Positions 9,771 to 18,950 of a DNA stretch of 64,000 nucleotides are shown here, in pieces. The stretch lies in contig JBAZSG010000004.1 in NCBI GenBank assembly GCA_041662585.1, positions 18,173 to 82,172 on the forward strand, in the 5' to 3' direction. The notes beneath the pieces were generated by a model, which saw nothing but the letters and a program-made list of their open reading frames with translations, had not been told where the DNA came from and made no database searches. Within the stretch, counting starts at the first letter, position 1; every line of letters starts with the position of its first letter. The stretch is from Patescibacteria group bacterium. GTDB lineage: Bacteria > Patescibacteriota > Patescibacteriia > UBA1558 > GWA2-36-10. Both the position numbers and the translations under genes were made by a program.

Positions 9771-10325
9771 ATGAAAAAAGTACAGCAAATAAAAAATTTA
9801 ATTAAAAATGAATGTGCCAAAGGGCCAATAGATGATTGGTTTTACTCAACATACTTATTGGGTGTAGAAAAATTTGCCAAATGGCTACTAGCTAGACTAC
9901 CAAAAGCAAACAAAGAAGTAGTCATGCTAGGAGTTTGGCTTCATGATTTACAGAGGATAAAAGGCATCAAAGGCAATCATCAAGAAGTGGGCGCTAAGGA
10001 AGCCGAAAAAGTAATGATAAAATTTGCTTATGATAATAAAACAATTAATCAAGTAAAAAATATAATCCTTAGTCATTCTTGTAGTAGTAAAAAGCCAAAT
10101 ACTTTGGAAGGAAAGATTTTGGCTAGTGCCGATGCCATGTCTCATTATCATAATGATTTTTTCTTACAAATTGCTGTAACTGGTCAAAGAAATTTAGAAG
10201 AATATAAAAAATGGGTATTAGAAAAATTAAATAGAAATTATAATGTAAAAATTTGTTTTCCTTTTGCCAAAAAATCTATAAAGGCAAGGCATGATTTATT
10301 TAAAAAGGTTTTTACCATGAAGTAG
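9771..10325 (+). CDS. Hypothetical protein, weak HD-phosphohydrolase-like motifs
   Basis: 184 aa; WLHDLQR (HD dyad), LSHSC, SADAMSHY present but no upstream motif-I His found; bracketed by the 57-bp direct repeats. Confidence 0.3.
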   Translation: MKKVQQIKNLIKNECAKGPIDDWFYSTYLLGVEKFAKWLLARLPKANKEVVMLGVWLHDLQRIKGIKGNHQEVGAKEAEKVMIKFAYDNKTINQVKNIILSHSCSSKKPNTLEGKILASADAMSHYHNDFFLQIAVTGQRNLEEYKKWVLEKLNRNYNVKICFPFAKKSIKARHDLFKKVFTMK

Positions 10326-13206: not shown

Positions 13207-16200
13207 ATGTACAAAACTCAAACATTAACTAAAACATCAGTTTCTATTAAAGAAAAAATTGCTATTGGTGTTGGACTATTAGCCATTAGCTTTATTGGTT
13301 TCAACTTTATTTTTTCATTATTTGGTGAAGTATTAGAGCCAGTAAAAAAAATAGTAATATCAAAGCCACAAACTATAGTTAACAATAATGTATATAGTAT
13401 ATATCCAGTTTTTGAAAAAAAGTATGTAGAAGATGAAATTATAATTAAAATTGCAGATAAGGTAAGTAAAGAAACTATTGAGTCTGTGATAATGACAGAT
13501 CTTACAAACTTATCTCCAAAACAAATAAATTTTAGTTTGAGCGAAACAGATAAAGAGTCTGTATTGCTAAAACCTGTATTTTCTCATTTTAAAAATAAAG
13601 AATTAGGATTTAAATATGATCTTGATAAATTTTATTATATAAAAAATTTAAGCACGGATGAAGATCAATTGATAAAGGATTTACAAAAAACAAATAACTA
13701 TGAATATGTTGGACGTTTAGTAGAACCTCAAACTTTTTTTACGCCAAATGATACATTTTATAACAAGCAATGGTTTCTTAATAATACTGGACAAAGTGAT
13801 TTAATAAACTATGTACCGCCAGCAATATCAGGTTTTGATATAAATGCTCCAGAAGCTTGGGATACTACACAAGGTTCCAGTGATATTATTATTGCTTTTA
13901 ATGAATTGACACAACCTAATCATCCGGATTTAGTAAATAATATGTGGGTTAATGATGATGCTCCTGGTGATAAAAATAGTGATGGTTGTCCTGGAGTATG
14001 TGGAATTGATGATGATGGTGATGGCCTGATTGATGAAGATAGATTAGATAATGAACCAGGGGATATGGGGTATTTAAATGATTTAGTCAATGACGATGAT
14101 GAAAATGGATATCCAGACGATATTCATGGTTGGAATTTTACGACAAACTCAGGAGATGTTTATAGTGAGTATGCTCAACACGGCATGGGTGTTCATGGTT
14201 TGTTAGCAGCGCAAGGAAACAATTCATTAGGAGTAAGTGGAGTATGTCCACAGTGTAAAGTTATGTCGATTGGTTCTGAATGGGGAGCTGAATCAATAAT
14301 AGCAGCACCTGTTTACGCAGTTGATAATGGTGCTAGGATTTTAAGTATGAGCTATTTAACAACAGATGATCCAGCTTTGCATGCAGCAGTGCAATACGCA
14401 TATGAGGCTGGATTATTAATGTTTGGTGCCTCTGGTAACTCTAATATCTCAACGGAAGCTCTTTATCCAACTTTTTATTCAGAAGTATTAGCGATTACCG
14501 CTGCTGATCAGTTTGGTTGGAAAGCTCCTTGGAGTGTTTTTGGTCCAAAAACAGAACTTATGGCTCCTGGAAGTGAAATATTATCAACCACAGTTAATGA
14601 TCAGTATGCATATTTTGGCGGTACCTCTGGCGCAACACCCGTTGTGGCTGGTATCGCAGGATTAGTTTTTTCGGCAAATCCTTTACTGACAGCACATGAT
14701 GTAAAAAATATATTACGTACTACAGCACAGCCATATAAATCTTGGTTTTATGCAGGTGTAGGTATGGTTGACACAGAAGCGGCAGTACAACTTGCGCAAT
14801 ATTCTAATACACCAAGAGTAGAGATAAATGATCCACTACAAAGCACAGTAATAGCAAATAGCGACACCTCTTATAATATAAGAGGTAGTGCCAACGGAGA
14901 TAAATTTGTATCGTATGATCTAGTATATGGTAGAGGAATGTTTCCTTCGGATTGGACGTATATTGTGCAATCTAGTAATAATCAAGTAGCGGACAATGTA
15001 TTAGGAATATTTGATGTTAGCAGTGTAGGGGCTGGGTATTATACGGTTGAATTACGAGTTACTTCATCAGACGGAATAGAATATACAGATAAAATAGTTT
15101 TGTATAAACAACATGCATTTGATCAATCTTGGCCAATAGAACTTAGCGCAGGAGGGCTTAAAGAATCATTAGGTATATTTGATATTTTAGATGATAACAA
15201 TCCAGAGTTTTTGGTTGCAGATTATGATTCAAATAACATTGAAATATATTCTATTAATGGTTCTCTTGTAACTAGTACAGATATAGATAGTGCAGTAATT
15301 AATAGTCCAACTTTTGTAGTACAAGGGGATGTAACTTGTGATGGTAATAAAGACACAATAGTAGTGACAAAAAAAAATTGGCCATCTATTCCTTTAATAT
15401 ATATTTATGATAAAAGTGGAAATAAAATTAGAGAATTTGAAGTACCTGGCATAACAATACTCAGTTATAATTTTTCAAACGTCGCATTAGGTGATATTAA
15501 TGGTGATGGCTGTGATGAAATAGTTATTAAAACAGCAGAATCAATTTTAGTTGTGGATGGTAATGGCATAAATCTTGGTTCTAAAGATTATTCATTATTA
15601 CAAATGGGATCCCCAGCAATATTTGATATTAATAATGATGGCACTAATGAAATATTATTTTCCTCAAATGAAGGAATTGATTGTTTAACATATTCAAATT
15701 CAGCTTTATCAATGTGTCCTGGACAATGGCCTTATTATATAGATGGTTATCCGGGAGTAGCTACAATAGTGGTTGATTTGGATTCCGATAATGTTTTTGA
15801 AATTGTTAATTTTGCCTTTTCTATACAAATATTAGAATTAAATGGAACGCTTATTAACGATATTCAAATACCAAGACTTATACCTACTATGGGAAACAAT
15901 GAAACATTTATCACTGGATTTGCAATTGGCGATATTAATAATGATCAGCAATATGAAATAATTTTTACTCGAGATTCAAGATTTGGAAATGTAATGAATG
16001 GCGAGGAGCAAAATATATATGCCTATACATTACAAGGAGCTCTTATTGATGGGTGGCCACAAAAATCTGAAGCATCTGGTAATAGTAAGGTTGCTATTCG
16101 AATTGATGATTTAGATGGAGACGGTATTAATGATATTTTATATGAGCAAAATAATCGTATTTTTGCTTTTCATGGTGATGGAAGTGTTGTGAATAGCTTT

Positions 16201-16623
16201 CCTCGCCAAATGTCAAATTTTGAAAATAGTCAGGAAATAGATATTTATTTATGGGATGATAAGCAAGGCTCCGAGTTATTTCTTTATTCTTTTGTAAGAT
16301 TTGGGGACTTATCTAGGATTACTAAAAATACATTTTCAAGTAATGATTCTATAGGTACATGGCAATTACCTTTTGCGAATAGGCAATCTTCAATGACTCT
16401 ACCAAGTATGTATGTTCAGCCAATGTGTTCAGATGGTACAGCCTATAATAAGTGCAATGATAGTGCTCAATATTGTGATGAAGGTCGGCTTATATCACGT
16501 TGTGATTTATGTAATAAAGGTTGTTTAGATGGTTATGATTGTATATCAGGCCAATGTTGTCAGAAAATAGAAGGTCAATATGAGTGTGATATAGCCACAG
16601 AGCAGTTTGATTTAAAATATTAA
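13207..16623 (+). CDS. Secreted, membrane-anchored subtilisin-like (S8) serine protease with a Ca-binding Asp-rich insert, FG-GAP/VCBS beta-propeller repeats and a Cys-rich C-terminus
   Basis: 1138 aa; N-terminal TM/signal; Asp (DINAPEAWD), His (HGMGVHGL) and Ser (GGTSGATPVVAG) catalytic motifs; DDDGDGLIDEDRLDNEPGD insert; repeated GDINGDGxDEI, FDINNDGTNEILF, DDLDGDGINDILY; C-terminal CSDGTAYNKCNDSAQYCDEGRLISRCDLCNKGC. Confidence 0.8.
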   Translation: MYKTQTLTKTSVSIKEKIAIGVGLLAISFIGFNFIFSLFGEVLEPVKKIVISKPQTIVNNNVYSIYPVFEKKYVEDEIIIKIADKVSKETIESVIMTDLTNLSPKQINFSLSETDKESVLLKPVFSHFKNKELGFKYDLDKFYYIKNLSTDEDQLIKDLQKTNNYEYVGRLVEPQTFFTPNDTFYNKQWFLNNTGQSDLINYVPPAISGFDINAPEAWDTTQGSSDIIIAFNELTQPNHPDLVNNMWVNDDAPGDKNSDGCPGVCGIDDDGDGLIDEDRLDNEPGDMGYLNDLVNDDDENGYPDDIHGWNFTTNSGDVYSEYAQHGMGVHGLLAAQGNNSLGVSGVCPQCKVMSIGSEWGAESIIAAPVYAVDNGARILSMSYLTTDDPALHAAVQYAYEAGLLMFGASGNSNISTEALYPTFYSEVLAITAADQFGWKAPWSVFGPKTELMAPGSEILSTTVNDQYAYFGGTSGATPVVAGIAGLVFSANPLLTAHDVKNILRTTAQPYKSWFYAGVGMVDTEAAVQLAQYSNTPRVEINDPLQSTVIANSDTSYNIRGSANGDKFVSYDLVYGRGMFPSDWTYIVQSSNNQVADNVLGIFDVSSVGAGYYTVELRVTSSDGIEYTDKIVLYKQHAFDQSWPIELSAGGLKESLGIFDILDDNNPEFLVADYDSNNIEIYSINGSLVTSTDIDSAVINSPTFVVQGDVTCDGNKDTIVVTKKNWPSIPLIYIYDKSGNKIREFEVPGITILSYNFSNVALGDINGDGCDEIVIKTAESILVVDGNGINLGSKDYSLLQMGSPAIFDINNDGTNEILFSSNEGIDCLTYSNSALSMCPGQWPYYIDGYPGVATIVVDLDSDNVFEIVNFAFSIQILELNGTLINDIQIPRLIPTMGNNETFITGFAIGDINNDQQYEIIFTRDSRFGNVMNGEEQNIYAYTLQGALIDGWPQKSEASGNSKVAIRIDDLDGDGINDILYEQNNRIFAFHGDGSVVNSFPRQMSNFENSQEIDIYLWDDKQGSELFLYSFVRFGDLSRITKNTFSSNDSIGTWQLPFANRQSSMTLPSMYVQPMCSDGTAYNKCNDSAQYCDEGRLISRCDLCNKGCLDGYDCISGQCCQKIEGQYECDIATEQFDLKY

Positions 16624-16632
16624 ATTAAAAAT

Positions 16633-17100
16633 ATGAAAATAATAAAACTATCAGCAGCTATACTAATGTCTCTAGCCGCTGGAGCTATAGGTTCAGCCTT
16701 TACTTTTACAGGAATAGATTCTTGGTATCAATATCTCAACAAACCAAGCTTCAATCCACCTTCTTGGATATTTGGTCCAGTCTGGACCACACTATATATT
16801 TTGATGGGTATAGCTTTGTATTTGATTTGGCAAGAAGGACTTAAAAAAGCCTTTGTCAAAAACTCTTTTATATTGTTTGTAGTCAATCTAGTCTTAAATT
16901 CTCTCTGGTCTATTGCTTTCTTTGGTTTACAAAATCCAGCTTTGGCATTTTTGGTGATTGTCTTACTATGGGTTAGTATATTAGTACTTATCATTCGTTT
17001 CTATAGGATAAATAAACTAGCTTCTTATCTACTAATACCATATCTACTATGGGTTAGTTTTGCTAGTGTTTTAAACTTTAGTATTTGGCAGTTGAATTAA
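16633..17100 (+). CDS. tspO: TspO/MBR family protein, paralog 2 (~96% nucleotide identity to 10944..11417)
   Basis: 155 aa, near-identical protein; the DNA repeat runs from ~16643 to the stop. Confidence 0.8.
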   Translation: MKIIKLSAAILMSLAAGAIGSAFTFTGIDSWYQYLNKPSFNPPSWIFGPVWTTLYILMGIALYLIWQEGLKKAFVKNSFILFVVNLVLNSLWSIAFFGLQNPALAFLVIVLLWVSILVLIIRFYRINKLASYLLIPYLLWVSFASVLNFSIWQLN

Positions 17101-17140: not shown

Positions 17141-17217
17141 GGTATAAAAATAGTCGGATGACAGGGACAAGAATAAACTTGTATATCATCCGACTATTGG
17201 ATTGTAGGCCAAGTTGT

Positions 17218-17637
17218 CTAGCCTTCGGACTGCTTGACGGCGTCGAACTCGATCTCGACCAGAGCATCGAAGGGGAGCCAGGAGACACCGAAGGCCTTGC
17301 GCCTGGGCCTCACGACGGAGGTGTTGACTCCGAAGGAGACCTTCCAGCAATCGTTGAGGCAGGCGTAGTCCCGGGGGTAGTTGTCGCTGACGATCATGAC
17401 CGTCGCCGAGTGGACGTCGTCCGGCGTCAGACCGACAGCGATGAGCTGGTCGGCCATCTTCTGCAGTACCTCGACGACCTGCTCCTGGAAGTTGCCGTTG
17501 GACTTCAGCCGGCCGTTCTCGACGATGCCTATGGTGCCGGAGAAGTGGAAGTGGTTACCGACCTGCACGCAGGTTGAGTAGGGTTGACCCGGAGCTTCCA
17601 TATTGGCTATGGCAGCTGGCTTGGTTTTTTGGGGCAT
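17218..17637 (-). CDS. ridA: RidA/YjgF/TdcF-family enamine/imine deaminase, compositionally foreign (~64% GC)
   Basis: 139 aa from the ATG at 17637, preceded by AGGAGGT; YjgF signature (PAAIANMEAPGQPYSTCVQVGNHFHFSGTIG...VVRPRRKAFGVSWLPFDALVEIEFDA); GC-rich sequence matches the ORF extent (~17195..17640). The track's longer start at 17724 is unlikely. Confidence 0.8.
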   Translation of the reverse strand: MPQKTKPAAIANMEAPGQPYSTCVQVGNHFHFSGTIGIVENGRLKSNGNFQEQVVEVLQKMADQLIAVGLTPDDVHSATVMIVSDNYPRDYACLNDCWKVSFGVNTSVVRPRRKAFGVSWLPFDALVEIEFDAVKQSEG

Positions 17638-17742
17638 GAAATACCTCCTATAGTGTACAGGTTTTGTCTGCTGGGCAGACGTTGGTTGATGGATAAAGTT
17701 ATAATAAATAACTATTTTTGTCAATAATTGTTTTAAATAAAA

Positions 17743-17871
17743 ATGTACAATTTTGTAATTTTAAATATTTTATAAAATGTACAATTTTAAAGTAAAAATA
17801 TCAAAAAATAAGGTATTTTTAGCATAAAAATGTACAATATTATATTAAAAACTTGTCAAAAAATGTACAAT
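17743..17871 (+). promoter_or_regulatory. Four direct repeats of (A)AAATGTACAAT (palindromic TGTACA core) at 17743, 17777, 17830 and 17863, upstream of a perfect TATAAT -10 box (17887..17892) and the MerR-GHKL gene
   Basis: Motif copies seen directly, in two pairs spaced 33-34 bp; a likely operator array. Confidence 0.55.
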
Positions 17872-17908
17872 TTGTTATACTTATTTTATAATATTAAGCT
17901 ATATAAAT

Positions 17909-18643
17909 ATGCCATACAAATTTGATATAAATGAAACTGCTGATATTTTGGGAGTCAATCCTTATACTTTACGTAGATGGGATAATAAAAAAATACTTAA
18001 AGCTAATAGAGATAGCGAAAAAGGACATCGTTATTATTTTGAAGATGATATAGAAATTTTTTTATCTAATAATTATAAGTATCTTTTAAAAATTGCCAAT
18101 AAATGGTCTCTTTCAAAGGAATCTATAAAAATACCATCTAGGTTCTATTGTGAAGATGCTTTTGTATTTAAGTCTCGTTTATCTAGATTTGCAGAAACTT
18201 TAAAGAGAGATGGTGTTCTTGGAGATTCTTTTTCACTGGTCACTTCTGTTGTAGGTGAAATTGGCAATAATTCATTTGATCATAATATTGGTAATTGGCC
18301 AGACATACCTGGAATATTTTTTGGATATAGTCTAAAAGAGCGTAAAATTATTTTAGCTGATAGAGGAAGAGGTGTGCTCACTACATTACAAAAAATTAGG
18401 CCAGAATTAGCCAATGATAAAGATGCTTTAAAAATAGCATTTACAGAAGTAGTGACCGGTAGATATCCAGAGAATAGAGGTAATGGATTGAAGTATGTCA
18501 AAAAAATAGTACAGAATAATAATATGTTTTTATGGTTTCATTCAGGGCAAAATGCTATTGTGCTAAAAAGTAAATCATCAGATTTGATAAATATAGACCT
18601 AGAGAAATATATGAGGGGGTGTTTTGTTATATTAGAATATTAA
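17909..18643 (+). CDS. MerR-type HTH DNA-binding domain fused to a GHKL (RsbW-like) ATPase/kinase domain
   Basis: 244 aa; N-terminal TADILGVNPYTLRRWDNKKIL...GHRYY (MerR HTH); C-terminal N-box EIGNNSFDH, G1 box DRGRGV, G2 box GNGLKYV. Confidence 0.65.
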   Translation: MPYKFDINETADILGVNPYTLRRWDNKKILKANRDSEKGHRYYFEDDIEIFLSNNYKYLLKIANKWSLSKESIKIPSRFYCEDAFVFKSRLSRFAETLKRDGVLGDSFSLVTSVVGEIGNNSFDHNIGNWPDIPGIFFGYSLKERKIILADRGRGVLTTLQKIRPELANDKDALKIAFTEVVTGRYPENRGNGLKYVKKIVQNNNMFLWFHSGQNAIVLKSKSSDLINIDLEKYMRGCFVILEY

Positions 18644-18659
18644 AAATTAAAATAAAATT

Positions 18660-18950
18660 ATGAATATAGAATTAAAAAAATTTGGCACTACTTTAACATC
18701 AAGAGATGGTGGTAAAGAAGCTTATAATGCACTGCAATCATCATTAATTAATTTTAAAGAAGATGAAGAATTGGTCGTAGATTTTAAGGGCGTTGATACT
18801 TTTTCTCCATCATGGGGGGATGAGTTTTTAGCAAATTTATTTAATAAATACAAAAATAGATTAGTACTTATCAATACTACTAATCCATCTGTAATCGCGA
18901 CTTTGGAAATGTTGTCAGATATAAAAGATATTAAATTTAATTTGCAATAG
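18660..18950 (+). CDS. STAS-like anti-sigma-factor-antagonist-type protein (DUF4325-like)
   Basis: 96 aa; VVDFKGVDTFSPSWGDEFLANL resembles the phosphorylatable-Ser loop of SpoIIAA/RsbV-type STAS domains; 16 nt downstream of the GHKL gene. Confidence 0.5.
   Translation: MNIELKKFGTTLTSRDGGKEAYNALQSSLINFKEDEELVVDFKGVDTFSPSWGDEFLANLFNKYKNRLVLINTTNPSVIATLEMLSDIKDIKFNLQ

Follow-up and report, generated by a model that had tools for sequence, protein, structure and literature searches.

Can a kinase of the partner-switching type carry its own DNA-binding domain and act directly upon promoter DNA? This question is raised by two adjacent genes, here termed A and B, on the Patescibacteria contig JBAZSG010000004.1, in a stretch of 64 kb (the window). 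A large part of bacterial diversity belongs to the Patescibacteria (CPR), tiny-celled organisms whose genomes are very small and encode few regulators that can be recognised as such; to our knowledge almost nothing is known of how they sense their own state or their hosts. In public databases the pair is labelled only as 'MerR family regulator' and 'DUF4325', and in the literature on DUF4325, on GHKL-STAS-MerR combinations and on Patescibacteria MerR proteins we found no description of the A-B family. An initial annotation, made from the sequence alone, had read the locus as an RsbW-like kinase with a DNA-binding domain, a STAS-like partner and an array of upstream repeats. Here, we followed up this reading by profile searches, structure comparison and comparison of related loci.

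Results

The open reading frame scan placed gene A at 17909..18643 and gene B at 18660..18950, in agreement with the initial annotation, and the features of the locus are collected in Table 1. The ridA gene near the pair was indeed foreign by composition, with 60% GC as compared to 33% in the window. The view that the pair lies in an accessory stretch had to be given up, as A and B show vertical conservation and stand among ordinary genes (TspO, an HI0933-like flavoprotein, YbjQ and a desaturase). The intergenic region ahead of gene A has a GC content of only 19%.

Table 1. Features of the A-B locus (positions are those of the window)
Feature	Position	Strand	Remarks
Putative operator repeat 1, AAAATGTACAAT	17740..17751	+	Exact 12-mer; local variant of family-wide direct repeat
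Putative operator repeat 2, AAAATGTACAAT, 34 nt past repeat 1	17774..17785	+	Exact 12-mer
Putative operator repeat 3, AAAATGTACAAT, 53 nt past repeat 2	17827..17838	+	Exact 12-mer
Putative operator repeat 4, AAAATGTACAAT, within spacer of predicted promoter	17860..17871	+	Between TTGTCA and TATACT
Predicted sigma-70-type promoter, alternative -10 TATAAT at 17887-17892	17853..17892	+	Consensus scan only
Gene A residues 1-55, MerR/BldC-type winged HTH	17909..18073	+	Pfam MerR_1, MerR, HTH_17; PDB profile matches
Proposed specificity residue Y19 of A	17963-17965	+	Covariation with operator base 3
Gene A residues 56-104, helical linker, no STAS domain	18074..18220	+	DSSP of structure model
Gene A residues 105-244 (stop codon included), RsbW/SpoIIAB-type GHKL domain	18221..18643	+	
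N box of A, E117-I-G-N-N121-S-F-D-H	18257-18283	+	
G1 box of A, D151-R-G-R-G155	18359-18373	+	
G2 box of A, G191-N-G-L-K195	18479-18493	+	
Gene B, 96-aa single-domain STAS protein, DUF4325 family	18660..18950	+	
Candidate phospho-acceptors S49 and S51 of gene B	18804-18812	+	

The MerR-family HTH claimed for A was recovered by Pfam MerR_1 (8.9e-10), MerR (6.1e-9) and HTH_17 at residues 6-55, with scores above the gathering cut-off for both MerR_1 (PF13411, 39 bits against 21.6) and MerR (PF00376, 36 bits against 28.2), both located at residues 7-51. The A1 profile of A matched RacA, BmrR and BldC in the PDB, the two BldC entries 6AMA and 6AMK at E values of about 0.006, and A fell outside the NCBIfam family HTH_BldC, scoring 16.1 bits where 77 are required. 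In the structure model of A, the HTH is followed by short helices (56-68 and 84-99) and then the GHKL domain, in place of the long antiparallel coiled coil for dimerisation and the C-terminal effector-binding region that characterise MerR regulators. DSSP analysis of the model showed the linker to be helical, with a further helix from 105 onward and no sheet or strand at 56-104. Linker residues W66, Y80, C81, F87 and R90 are invariant among homologues, and the linker is also kept in relatives devoid of the HTH.

The N, G1 and G2 boxes named in the initial annotation were all present in A and invariant across 43 homologues. Of the profile matches it had called for, MerR in A and DUF4325 in B were obtained and HATPase_c in A was not: the HATPase_c models of Pfam gave no match to A even at E<=1, the relative P0263 scored below the Pfam HATPase_c_2/HATPase_c threshold (18.5 bits vs 27.4), and sequence searches of Pfam, NCBIfam and PDB with A recovered the HTH only and no GHKL domain. 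Absence of a GHKL or a STAS fold would have told against the original reading, and structure comparison found both folds. A has the Bergerat (GHKL) fold with its N, G1 and G2 boxes and resembles SpoIIAB and RsbW, the three top matches being serine kinases that phosphorylate STAS proteins. Alignment of A with CapK by hhalign covered the GHKL part only (probability 81%, E 1.2e-5) and set N121 opposite N218 of CapK, mutation of which abolishes phosphorylation of CapS (PMC13373217); the similarity to CapK, though sufficient to reveal homology of the GHKL domains, is remote, and that to VapK is weak overall (probability 20%). We infer kinase activity for A, and partner switching for the pair.

The proposed STAS-like nature of the 96-aa protein B was borne out by a match to Pfam DUF4325 (PF14213, 8.2e-8) above the gathering score and by a STAS fold resembling SpoIIAA, RsbV and RsbR. 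The best PDB sequence match of the B profile was VapS (9Z7O), itself a DUF4325 protein (E 2.7e-17), and the hhalign alignment of the two (probability 92.5%) stops at residue 66 of 96, B having no C-terminal extension. The Ser-containing loop DFKGVDTFSPSWGDEF is present as described, and P50, S51, W52, G53, D54 and E55 in it are invariant. The invariant P50-S51-W52 opens helix 50-67, and residue 49 is Ser or Thr among homologues. In the alignments, S51 lies opposite S54, the proven phosphosite of CapS, and the alignment with VapS sets S48 of that protein opposite P50 of B; thus, the phospho-Ser cannot be placed to a single residue, and the phosphosite of B would be Ser51 or possibly Ser49. In addition, B displays a long invariant surface made up of K6, F8, G9, L12, S14, R15, G18, N75, S77 and V78.

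Conservation of the two genes as neighbours had been proposed as a check on the module. A and B were adjacent in 79 of 80 loci from related species, and the single exception is cut by a contig end, so that pairing held in all 79 testable loci, every one of them on a Patescibacteria-type contig. The gap from A to B ranges from -7 to +30 nt. At least 576 species-level genomes contain the pair, which is spread over many lineages of Patescibacteria and lies in housekeeping contexts. No third gene was conserved beside the pair in the 80 loci, be it a sigma factor, a PP2C phosphatase or an effector gene. The pairing of GHKL with DUF4325 persists where the HTH of A is absent or swapped for another HTH, and since HTH-less relatives exist, the core GHKL-STAS function does not depend on DNA binding.

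Upstream of A, the four direct copies seen in the initial annotation were confirmed and extend to 12-mers, AAAATGTACAAT, with no further exact copy within the 64-kb window. When dinucleotide shuffles of the intergenic region were searched, none of 5000 gave three or more copies of any 11-mer. TGTACA, which had been singled out as the repeated element, was also tried as the conserved operator and rejected, being absent upstream of A in the other 80 loci. K-mer counting revealed that the conserved operator is a TG[TC]ATAG-type direct repeat, and the copies in the window are a variant specific to its clade. The form seen in the closest clade, TGTATAAT, resembles a -10 element. Within 150 nt ahead of A, over the 80 loci, the strict motif was counted 137 times on the gene strand vs 6 times on the opposite strand, and its density was 10.9 per kb upstream of A vs 0.045 per kb elsewhere, an enrichment of about 240-fold. 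Loci carry 2-5 copies, most commonly spaced by 21 nt. The spacings in the window are 34, 53 and 33 nt instead, and spacings of 33-34 and 53-54 nt are common to the window and its nearest relatives L002, L003 and L005.

The perfect TATAAT reported earlier was found in place, along with a better-spaced predicted promoter, TTGTCA (17853-17858) and TATACT (17876-17881) separated by 17 nt, which has 10 of 12 consensus matches and a TG ahead of its -10 and encloses repeat 4. In related loci, operator copies flank or overlap TTGACA and TATAAT elements. The arrangement typical of MerR, a palindromic operator in an overlong spacer of 19-20 bp, was not found, the repeats being direct and the predicted spacer in the window 17 nt. 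Sites away from the operon were few. Elsewhere in the 64-kb window exact TGTACAAT occurred only inside open reading frames and at chance frequency, giving no further sites, and a search of 458 kb of flanks for lineage-specific paired sites yielded just one real extra, in L034. A metagenome scan for TGTATAGAT-N12-TGTATAGAT returned 139 sites, mostly tandem or eukaryote-like repeats, of which only 16-17 precede a homologue of A; about a regulon the scan tells little.

The operator varied together with the HTH. Base 3 of the operator was C in all 28 cases with Asp at residue 19 of the recognition helix of A, T in all 31 cases with Gln, Met or another residue, and A or G in all five cases with Asn or Ser, with no exceptions overall. 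Mutual information between base 3 and residue 19 was 1.35 bits, the highest among 15 x 244 position pairs, the runner-up reaching 0.72. The same rule was upheld in 16 metagenome loci obtained independently by the DNA-pattern search. Comparison of loci thus lends strong support to the upstream repeats being the predicted binding sites of the HTH of A.

Discussion

The A-B operon is probably a so far undescribed variant of the bacterial partner-switching regulators. Its folds, the strict pairing of its genes, the conserved operator and the covariation of HTH and operator specificity have been demonstrated, and on balance we favour a real, autoregulated two-gene regulatory operon, conserved across Patescibacteria, that works as a DNA-binding partner switch. 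A would be the transcription factor, its winged HTH reading a 9-12 bp element present in 2-5 direct copies over its own promoter. It would assemble head-to-tail on the repeats, in most lineages at intervals of about two helical turns, and occlude the promoter; BldC (PMC5859096) is a precedent for such head-to-tail binding of direct repeats by a MerR-like HTH. B would dock on the GHKL domain and be phosphorylated in an ATP-dependent manner on a serine at the beginning of helix 2, Ser51 (possibly Ser49). A would then toggle between a DNA-bound and a B-bound state according to its own nucleotide state and the phosphorylation of B, and operator DNA would stand in for the sigma factor of other partner switches. 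We propose that, by repressing itself, the operon would keep unphosphorylated B at a set point. Such repression, an effect of B on the binding of A to DNA, a signal and an output are presumed parts of the switch. By analogy with RsbW and SpoIIAB, our guess for the signal would be the ATP/ADP ratio or the growth state. Against this reading speak the lack of a match of A to the HATPase_c models of Pfam, the remoteness of CapK and VapK, the ambiguous place of the phospho-Ser, the lack of a linked phosphatase gene, the poor match of a symmetric SpoIIAB-like dimer to direct repeats, the departure of the window from the 21-nt spacing, the scarcity of operator sites elsewhere and the existence of HTH-less relatives.

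If A regulated its own operon alone, the module would be without an output. A tentative and rather speculative extension is that A-B is a sigma-free switch in which kinase A releases operator DNA on binding unphosphorylated B, acting in the whole lineage as master sensor of the energy state or of contact with a host, with a small regulon and with an operator code that has diversified clade by clade through one recognition-helix residue; binding of the repeat DNA might then itself activate the kinase, as ssDNA activates CapK. Another reading, which we hold possible though not the probable one, makes B the output. The HTH of A would only autoregulate the operon, A being a kinase that switches B off and whose attachment to its own promoter keeps the A:B ratio constant, and unphosphorylated B would bind an unlinked target protein, as VapS, RsbV, SpoIIAA and HsbA do. 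In all GHKL-STAS pairs characterised so far the partner-changer is the STAS protein, GHKL proteins without an HTH retain a DUF4325 partner, there are almost no operator sites beyond the operon's own promoter, and the invariant surface of B seems larger than docking of a kinase needs. However, the target would be entirely hypothetical, since no third gene is conserved in the 80 loci, and operator copies spread over the whole promoter together with a fast-evolving code suggest that DNA binding is central.

The GHKL domain of A might, improbably, be an ATP-driven dimerisation or conformational clamp of the MutL, GyrB or MORC type, with B as a non-phosphorylated STAS cofactor (MlaB-MlaF type) that tunes an ATP-dependent DNA-binding cycle. 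Invariance of E117, at the general-base position of GHKL ATPases, would fit such a clamp, but A lacks the transducer domain that clamp ATPases carry past GHKL, its best structural matches phosphorylate STAS proteins, and B comes from the same family as VapS, which has been shown to be a kinase substrate, and retains an invariant Ser where the corresponding helix begins. The initial annotation had also left room for a defence cassette. In such a cassette of the CapKS or VapKSC kind, whether for defence or as toxin-antitoxin, a stress- or ssDNA-activated kinase would control an adjacent immune or toxin gene. The nearest characterised relatives are indeed immune regulators, the HTH of A matches mad1 of PADLOC, and a few related loci have operator pairs ahead of NYN, Fic or MNT-type genes. 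Nevertheless, the PADLOC match spans the HTH of A only and B has none, the 80 loci share no adjacent effector gene, only one homologue was found among 2.9 million viral contigs, the pair is widespread in Patescibacteria lineages in housekeeping contexts, and A is devoid of the internal STAS domain with which CapK and VapK form their ssDNA site. The PADLOC, neighbour and viral-contig results give this reading no support, and we regard it as very unlikely. That the repeats are chance products of AT-rich DNA or stacked promoter elements, unrelated to A, is scarcely credible: the low GC of the intergenic region and the -10-like motif of the closest clade could suggest it, but the shuffles, the strand-specific enrichment over the 80 loci, the covariation of the motif with residue 19 and the separate presence of good -35 and -10 elements all speak against it.

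Under the favoured reading, a DNA-binding partner switch, A-B would be a kinase-STAS switch for which the operator is defined and recognition follows a rule of one residue and one base. This rule is directly checkable in E. coli, without cultivation of CPR bacteria; it implies that Q19D in A of a TGTATAGAT lineage would shift its preference to TGCATAGAT. Moreover, A-B takes the recently described CapK/VapK kinase-STAS family beyond mobile immune loci, to a regulator that is chromosomal and inherited vertically.

Comparison with known systems

The closest characterised systems are RsbW-RsbV, CapK-CapS and VapK-VapS. RsbW-RsbV and SpoIIAB-SpoIIAA share with A-B the N, G1 and G2 boxes, a STAS partner with a Ser where helix 2 begins, and adjacent, co-oriented genes for kinase and STAS protein, and they are the best structural matches of both proteins. 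Unlike RsbW and SpoIIAB, A carries an N-terminal HTH and a 50-residue helical linker, and Pfam HATPase_c_2 falls short of its threshold; the A-B loci are without the linked sigma factor or PP2C phosphatase gene, and B belongs to DUF4325 rather than to the classical STAS family PF01740. In SiaB-SiaC of Pseudomonas aeruginosa, the partner (DUF1987) is of a different STAS-like family from B and there is no DNA-binding domain. A PP2C phosphatase and a diguanylate cyclase are further parts of that system.

As for DNA binding, the MerR-like HTH protein BldC binds direct repeats head-to-tail (PMC5859096). In both BldC and A the winged HTH is of the MerR type but lacks the coiled-coil helix used for dimerisation, and direct repeats in variable numbers make up the targets of BldC and the putative operator of A. 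BldC, however, is a stand-alone domain of 68 residues, whereas A is a multidomain protein for which head-to-tail assembly is predicted.

CapK-CapS and VapK-VapS-VapC were described by Chambers et al. (EMBO J 2026, PMC13373217). A kinase with its own DNA-binding domain had been thought to be undescribed; in fact CapK is an HTH-STAS-GHKL protein (PMC13373217), though it is the substrate CapS that binds DNA there. Both CapK and A are GHKL kinases or putative kinases with an N-terminal HTH, directly followed by the gene of a STAS-containing substrate, and autoregulation through operator binding, known for CapK-CapS, is predicted for A-B. CapK has a STAS domain between HTH and GHKL that forms an ssDNA-sensing site, where A has only helices. 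CapS is a repressor carrying a wHTH, whereas B is STAS-only with no DNA-binding domain, and the sites of CapS are palindromes, in contrast to the direct repeats of A-B, which track the HTH of A. Deletion of the CapK HTH gave no phenotype (PMC13373217), while the HTH of A tracks the operator. CapKS lies upstream of immune operons, unlike A-B, which had no conserved neighbour in 80 loci. VapS, like B, is a DUF4325 protein, and the N box of VapK (EIYANSFEH) is close to that of A (EIGNNSFDH). VapKSC includes a VapC/PIN gene, which A-B lacks, VapS (116 aa) has a C-terminal antitoxin helix that is missing from B, and VapK is a STAS-GHKL protein with no HTH as compared to the HTH-linker-GHKL order of A. 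Within this kinase-STAS family either partner, kinase or substrate, can carry the DNA-binding domain, and in some systems neither does.

Organisation of the locus

Both open reading frames that the initial annotation had assigned to the module were found, genes A and B being 16 nt apart in the AT-rich window (33% GC). A 268 bp intergenic region of 19% GC separates A from the divergent ridA gene on the 5' side, and a convergent gene for an HI0933-like flavoprotein lies 3' of the pair. With 60% GC as compared to 33% for the window, ridA is compositionally foreign, which bears out its earlier description as such. In public gene calls an antisense ORF is annotated on this DNA instead. A 702 kb ENA contig carrying the locus (L202, starting at window ~16716) ends inside the TspO gene, ~1.2 kb upstream of A; thus, one public assembly breaks near the GC-rich ridA segment. 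The neighbouring subtilase and TspO/MBR-family protein are unrelated to the A-B module.

Features of the A-B locus in the window and of related loci (own coordinates)
Feature	Position	Strand	Remarks
Subtilase with FG-GAP repeats	window 13207-16623		1138 aa; just upstream of ridA
TspO/MBR-family membrane protein	window 16633-17100		just upstream of ridA
Antisense ORF on ridA DNA	window 17158-17577	+	public gene calls
ridA (Endoribonuclease L-PSP)	window 17218-17640	-	
Four exact copies of AAAATGTACAAT	window, start 17740, 17774, 17827, 17860		intergenic region upstream of A
Best promoter-like site, TTGTCA-17-TATACT	window 17853-17881		spacer encloses repeat 4
Gene A	window 17909-18643	+	ORF, 244 aa
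Gene B	window 18660-18950	+	ORF, 96 aa, co-oriented with A
Terminator-like hairpin and T-run	window 18802-18820		inside gene B
TGTATAGGTT x2	L034 2050-2190		23 nt apart
Operators, Asp19 A and its B	L137 1600-3753	-	
TGTATAGAT pair	L159 ~9890-9920	-	
TGTATAGAT x2 and B homologue	L173 529-880		21 nt apart
HTH-less/other-wHTH form	L204 891-1765		
HTH-less/other-wHTH form	L205 3445-4548		

Domains of proteins A and B

Sequence profiles (Pfam, NCBIfam, PDB) detected only residues 6-55 of A, a MerR-type winged HTH. The part beyond the HTH is the better conserved one in an alignment of 43 homologues, across which GEIGNNSFDHN, DRGxG and RGNGLK are invariant. Residues 56-104 form helices and no sheet, and therefore A has no STAS domain between HTH and GHKL. 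Protein B carries a near-invariant segment (D41-F42 ... F48-S-P50-S51-W52-G-D-E55), where helix 2 begins at P50; S51 does not vary, and either Ser or Thr occupies position 49. The hairpin inside gene B coincides with the codons for the invariant FSPSWGDE and probably arises incidentally from the conserved coding sequence. The feature is real, and its anatomy had been read correctly.

Conservation of the gene pair

Relatives of A number in the thousands. When one genome was scanned for each GTDB species, at least 576 A loci were found; the best 80 all lie on contigs of Patescibacteria type, which represent many candidate phyla. A survey of co-occurrence, proposed earlier, found a B homologue directly after A in 79 of these 80, the remaining locus ending at a contig end. 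In 77 loci, between -7 and +30 nt separate A from B, which shows an operon whose genes are probably coupled in translation. Clustering of all flanking ORFs gave no third gene conserved in more than 8 of the 80 loci, and the 8-locus cluster was a spurious antisense ORF. IMG/VR held one homologue only, and PADLOC matched only the HTH. It follows that the module is chromosomal and inherited vertically; the initial reading of an accessory stretch, and the defence cassette that it offered as an alternative, were not upheld.

When the GHKL part of A alone was searched with phmmer against 1.84 billion representatives, only 301 clusters were obtained at E<=1e-3. The best 150 of these included 30 with a MerR-type HTH and 57 of 180-215 aa that lack an HTH but retain the linker. 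The HTH-less form (about 190-200 aa) and a form with an unrelated N-terminal wHTH are represented at L204 and L205 and among proteins P0241-P0389. One member of each was looked up, the HTH-less P0263, which has a sub-threshold match to HATPase_c_2, and P0270 (276 aa, unrelated wHTH); in both, a DUF4325 gene follows directly. Since such members keep this neighbour, linker-GHKL plus DUF4325 is the invariant core, to which the DNA-binding domain is added variably. L204 also has a gene for a HARE-HTH protein immediately upstream.

A conserved operator and its recognition

The four direct repeats seen earlier upstream of A are exact copies of a 12-mer, AAAATGTACAAT, which has no further copy in the 64 kb; in 5000 shuffles of the intergenic region that preserved its dinucleotides, no 11-mer reached even three copies. 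Their spacings (34, 53 and 33 nt) are common to the window's closest relatives. No other locus has TGTACA upstream of A, and this sequence was ruled out as a conserved operator element. Most loci have instead, in direct orientation, 2-5 copies of a related element (TGTATAGAT, TGCATAGTT, TGTATAGGT, TGAGTAGAT and others), which in the window's nearest clade is TGTATAATT or TGTATAGTT.

A strict pattern, TG[TC]ATA[GA][GAT]T, was scored in the 150 nt preceding A at each of the 80 loci, and matched 137 times on the gene strand versus 6 times on the opposite strand. Its density was 10.9 per kb there as compared to 0.045 per kb in the other 555 kb, with at least one copy in 65/80 loci and at least two in 53/80. 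Copies are most commonly spaced by 21 nt, followed by 10, 20, 41 and 53 nt. Where the spacing is 21 nt, copies are found directly ahead of TTGACA, ahead of TATAAT, and in the leader from transcription start to ATG, a layout expected of a repressor.

Base 3 of the operator covaries with residue 19 of A, the first of the recognition helix, before the invariant TLRRWD. Among 64 loci the split had no exception: all 28 with base C have Asp19, all 31 with T have one of Gln, Met, Thr, Glu, His and Tyr, and in the 5 with A or G the residue is Asn or Ser. In the window, Tyr19 is combined with a unique TGTACAAT variant. No other of the 15 x 244 position pairs reached the mutual information of this one, 1.35 bits, the runner-up (0.72 bits) being a gauge of the phylogenetic background. 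A metagenome scan by DNA pattern alone served as an independent sample: A homologues behind a TGTATAGAT pair had Met or Gln at residue 19 in 15/15, and the sole Asp19 A (L137) had TGCATAG-type repeats, confirming the rule. The covariation is the decisive result for a conserved operator predicted to be read by the HTH of A. BldC, a MerR-like HTH without coiled coil that binds direct repeats, is a precedent (PMC5859096), and its structures were among the PDB matches of the A profile.

Operator pairs were also seen away from A promoters. At L137, a second pair, of TGTATAGAT type, lies ~580 nt downstream of B and precedes an NYN-domain gene; each array comes after a paralogous gene ending ...FAWQRSFYDHVIR...NPLQWAVDREN, an arrangement that may be a duplicated or mobile unit. 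Within 458 kb of flanks, the L034 pair, ~100 nt upstream of an HTH-Fic gene and 1.9 kb upstream of A, is the sole convincing one outside A promoters; 4 loci have an HTH-Fic gene near A. At L159, a Polbeta/MNT-type nucleotidyltransferase gene follows the pair at a distance of 32 nt, with no A homologue on that contig within the sequence examined. At L173, which has no A gene, a B homologue follows the pair after 36 nt, its frame broken in a G run; either decay or a sequencing error may account for the break.

Proposed mechanism

Building on the folds, operon structure, operator and HTH-operator specificity shown here, we propose that A would multimerise on the repeats and repress its own promoter. 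B would dock on the GHKL domain and be phosphorylated on S51 or S49, and the nucleotide state of A together with the phosphorylation state of B would decide whether A is on or off the DNA. We hold this proposal as a whole to be probable, by a modest measure.

The main rival, in which B is the real output, acting on an unlinked partner, while the HTH merely sets the expression level of the operon, would fit both the occurrence of relatives that lack the HTH and the finding of almost no operator sites at other places; we rate it as rather unlikely, though to be reckoned with. Less likely still, the GHKL domain would be an ATP clamp and not a kinase, which we consider improbable. That the module is a defence cassette is highly improbable. 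The module is found widely in a radiation of bacteria that is still poorly understood, and it brings an unusually clean, testable DNA-recognition rule.

Comparison with known systems

The A-B pair structurally resembles RsbW-RsbV and SpoIIAB-SpoIIAA, but CapK-CapS and VapK-VapS are closer analogues. CapK (HTH-STAS-GHKL) phosphorylates CapS (STAS-wHTH) on S54, releasing it from palindromic operators, and VapK phosphorylates VapS on S48, freeing the toxin VapC (PMC13373217, 2026). With sequences from the source data of that paper, the A profile matched CapK (probability 81%, E 1.2e-5) in the GHKL domain only, N121 aligning to the catalytic N218, and VapK at 20% (E 1e-3). VapS itself belongs to DUF4325 in Pfam (E 2.7e-17); it matched the B profile at 92.5% (E 4.7e-7) and was its top match among PDB sequences (9Z7O). 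The CapS match was weak (22%) and gapless, placing S51 on S54, whereas VapS S48 falls opposite P50 of B; this leaves S51 or S49 as the putative phospho-acceptor.

None of the three known architectures accommodates A and B. Unlike CapK and VapK, A has no internal STAS domain; B lacks the wHTH of CapS and the antitoxin tail of VapS. In contrast to CapKS and VapKSC, no effector gene is linked to the pair, and the DNA-reading domain is on the kinase. The A-B pair is a new form of the kinase-STAS partner-switching theme.
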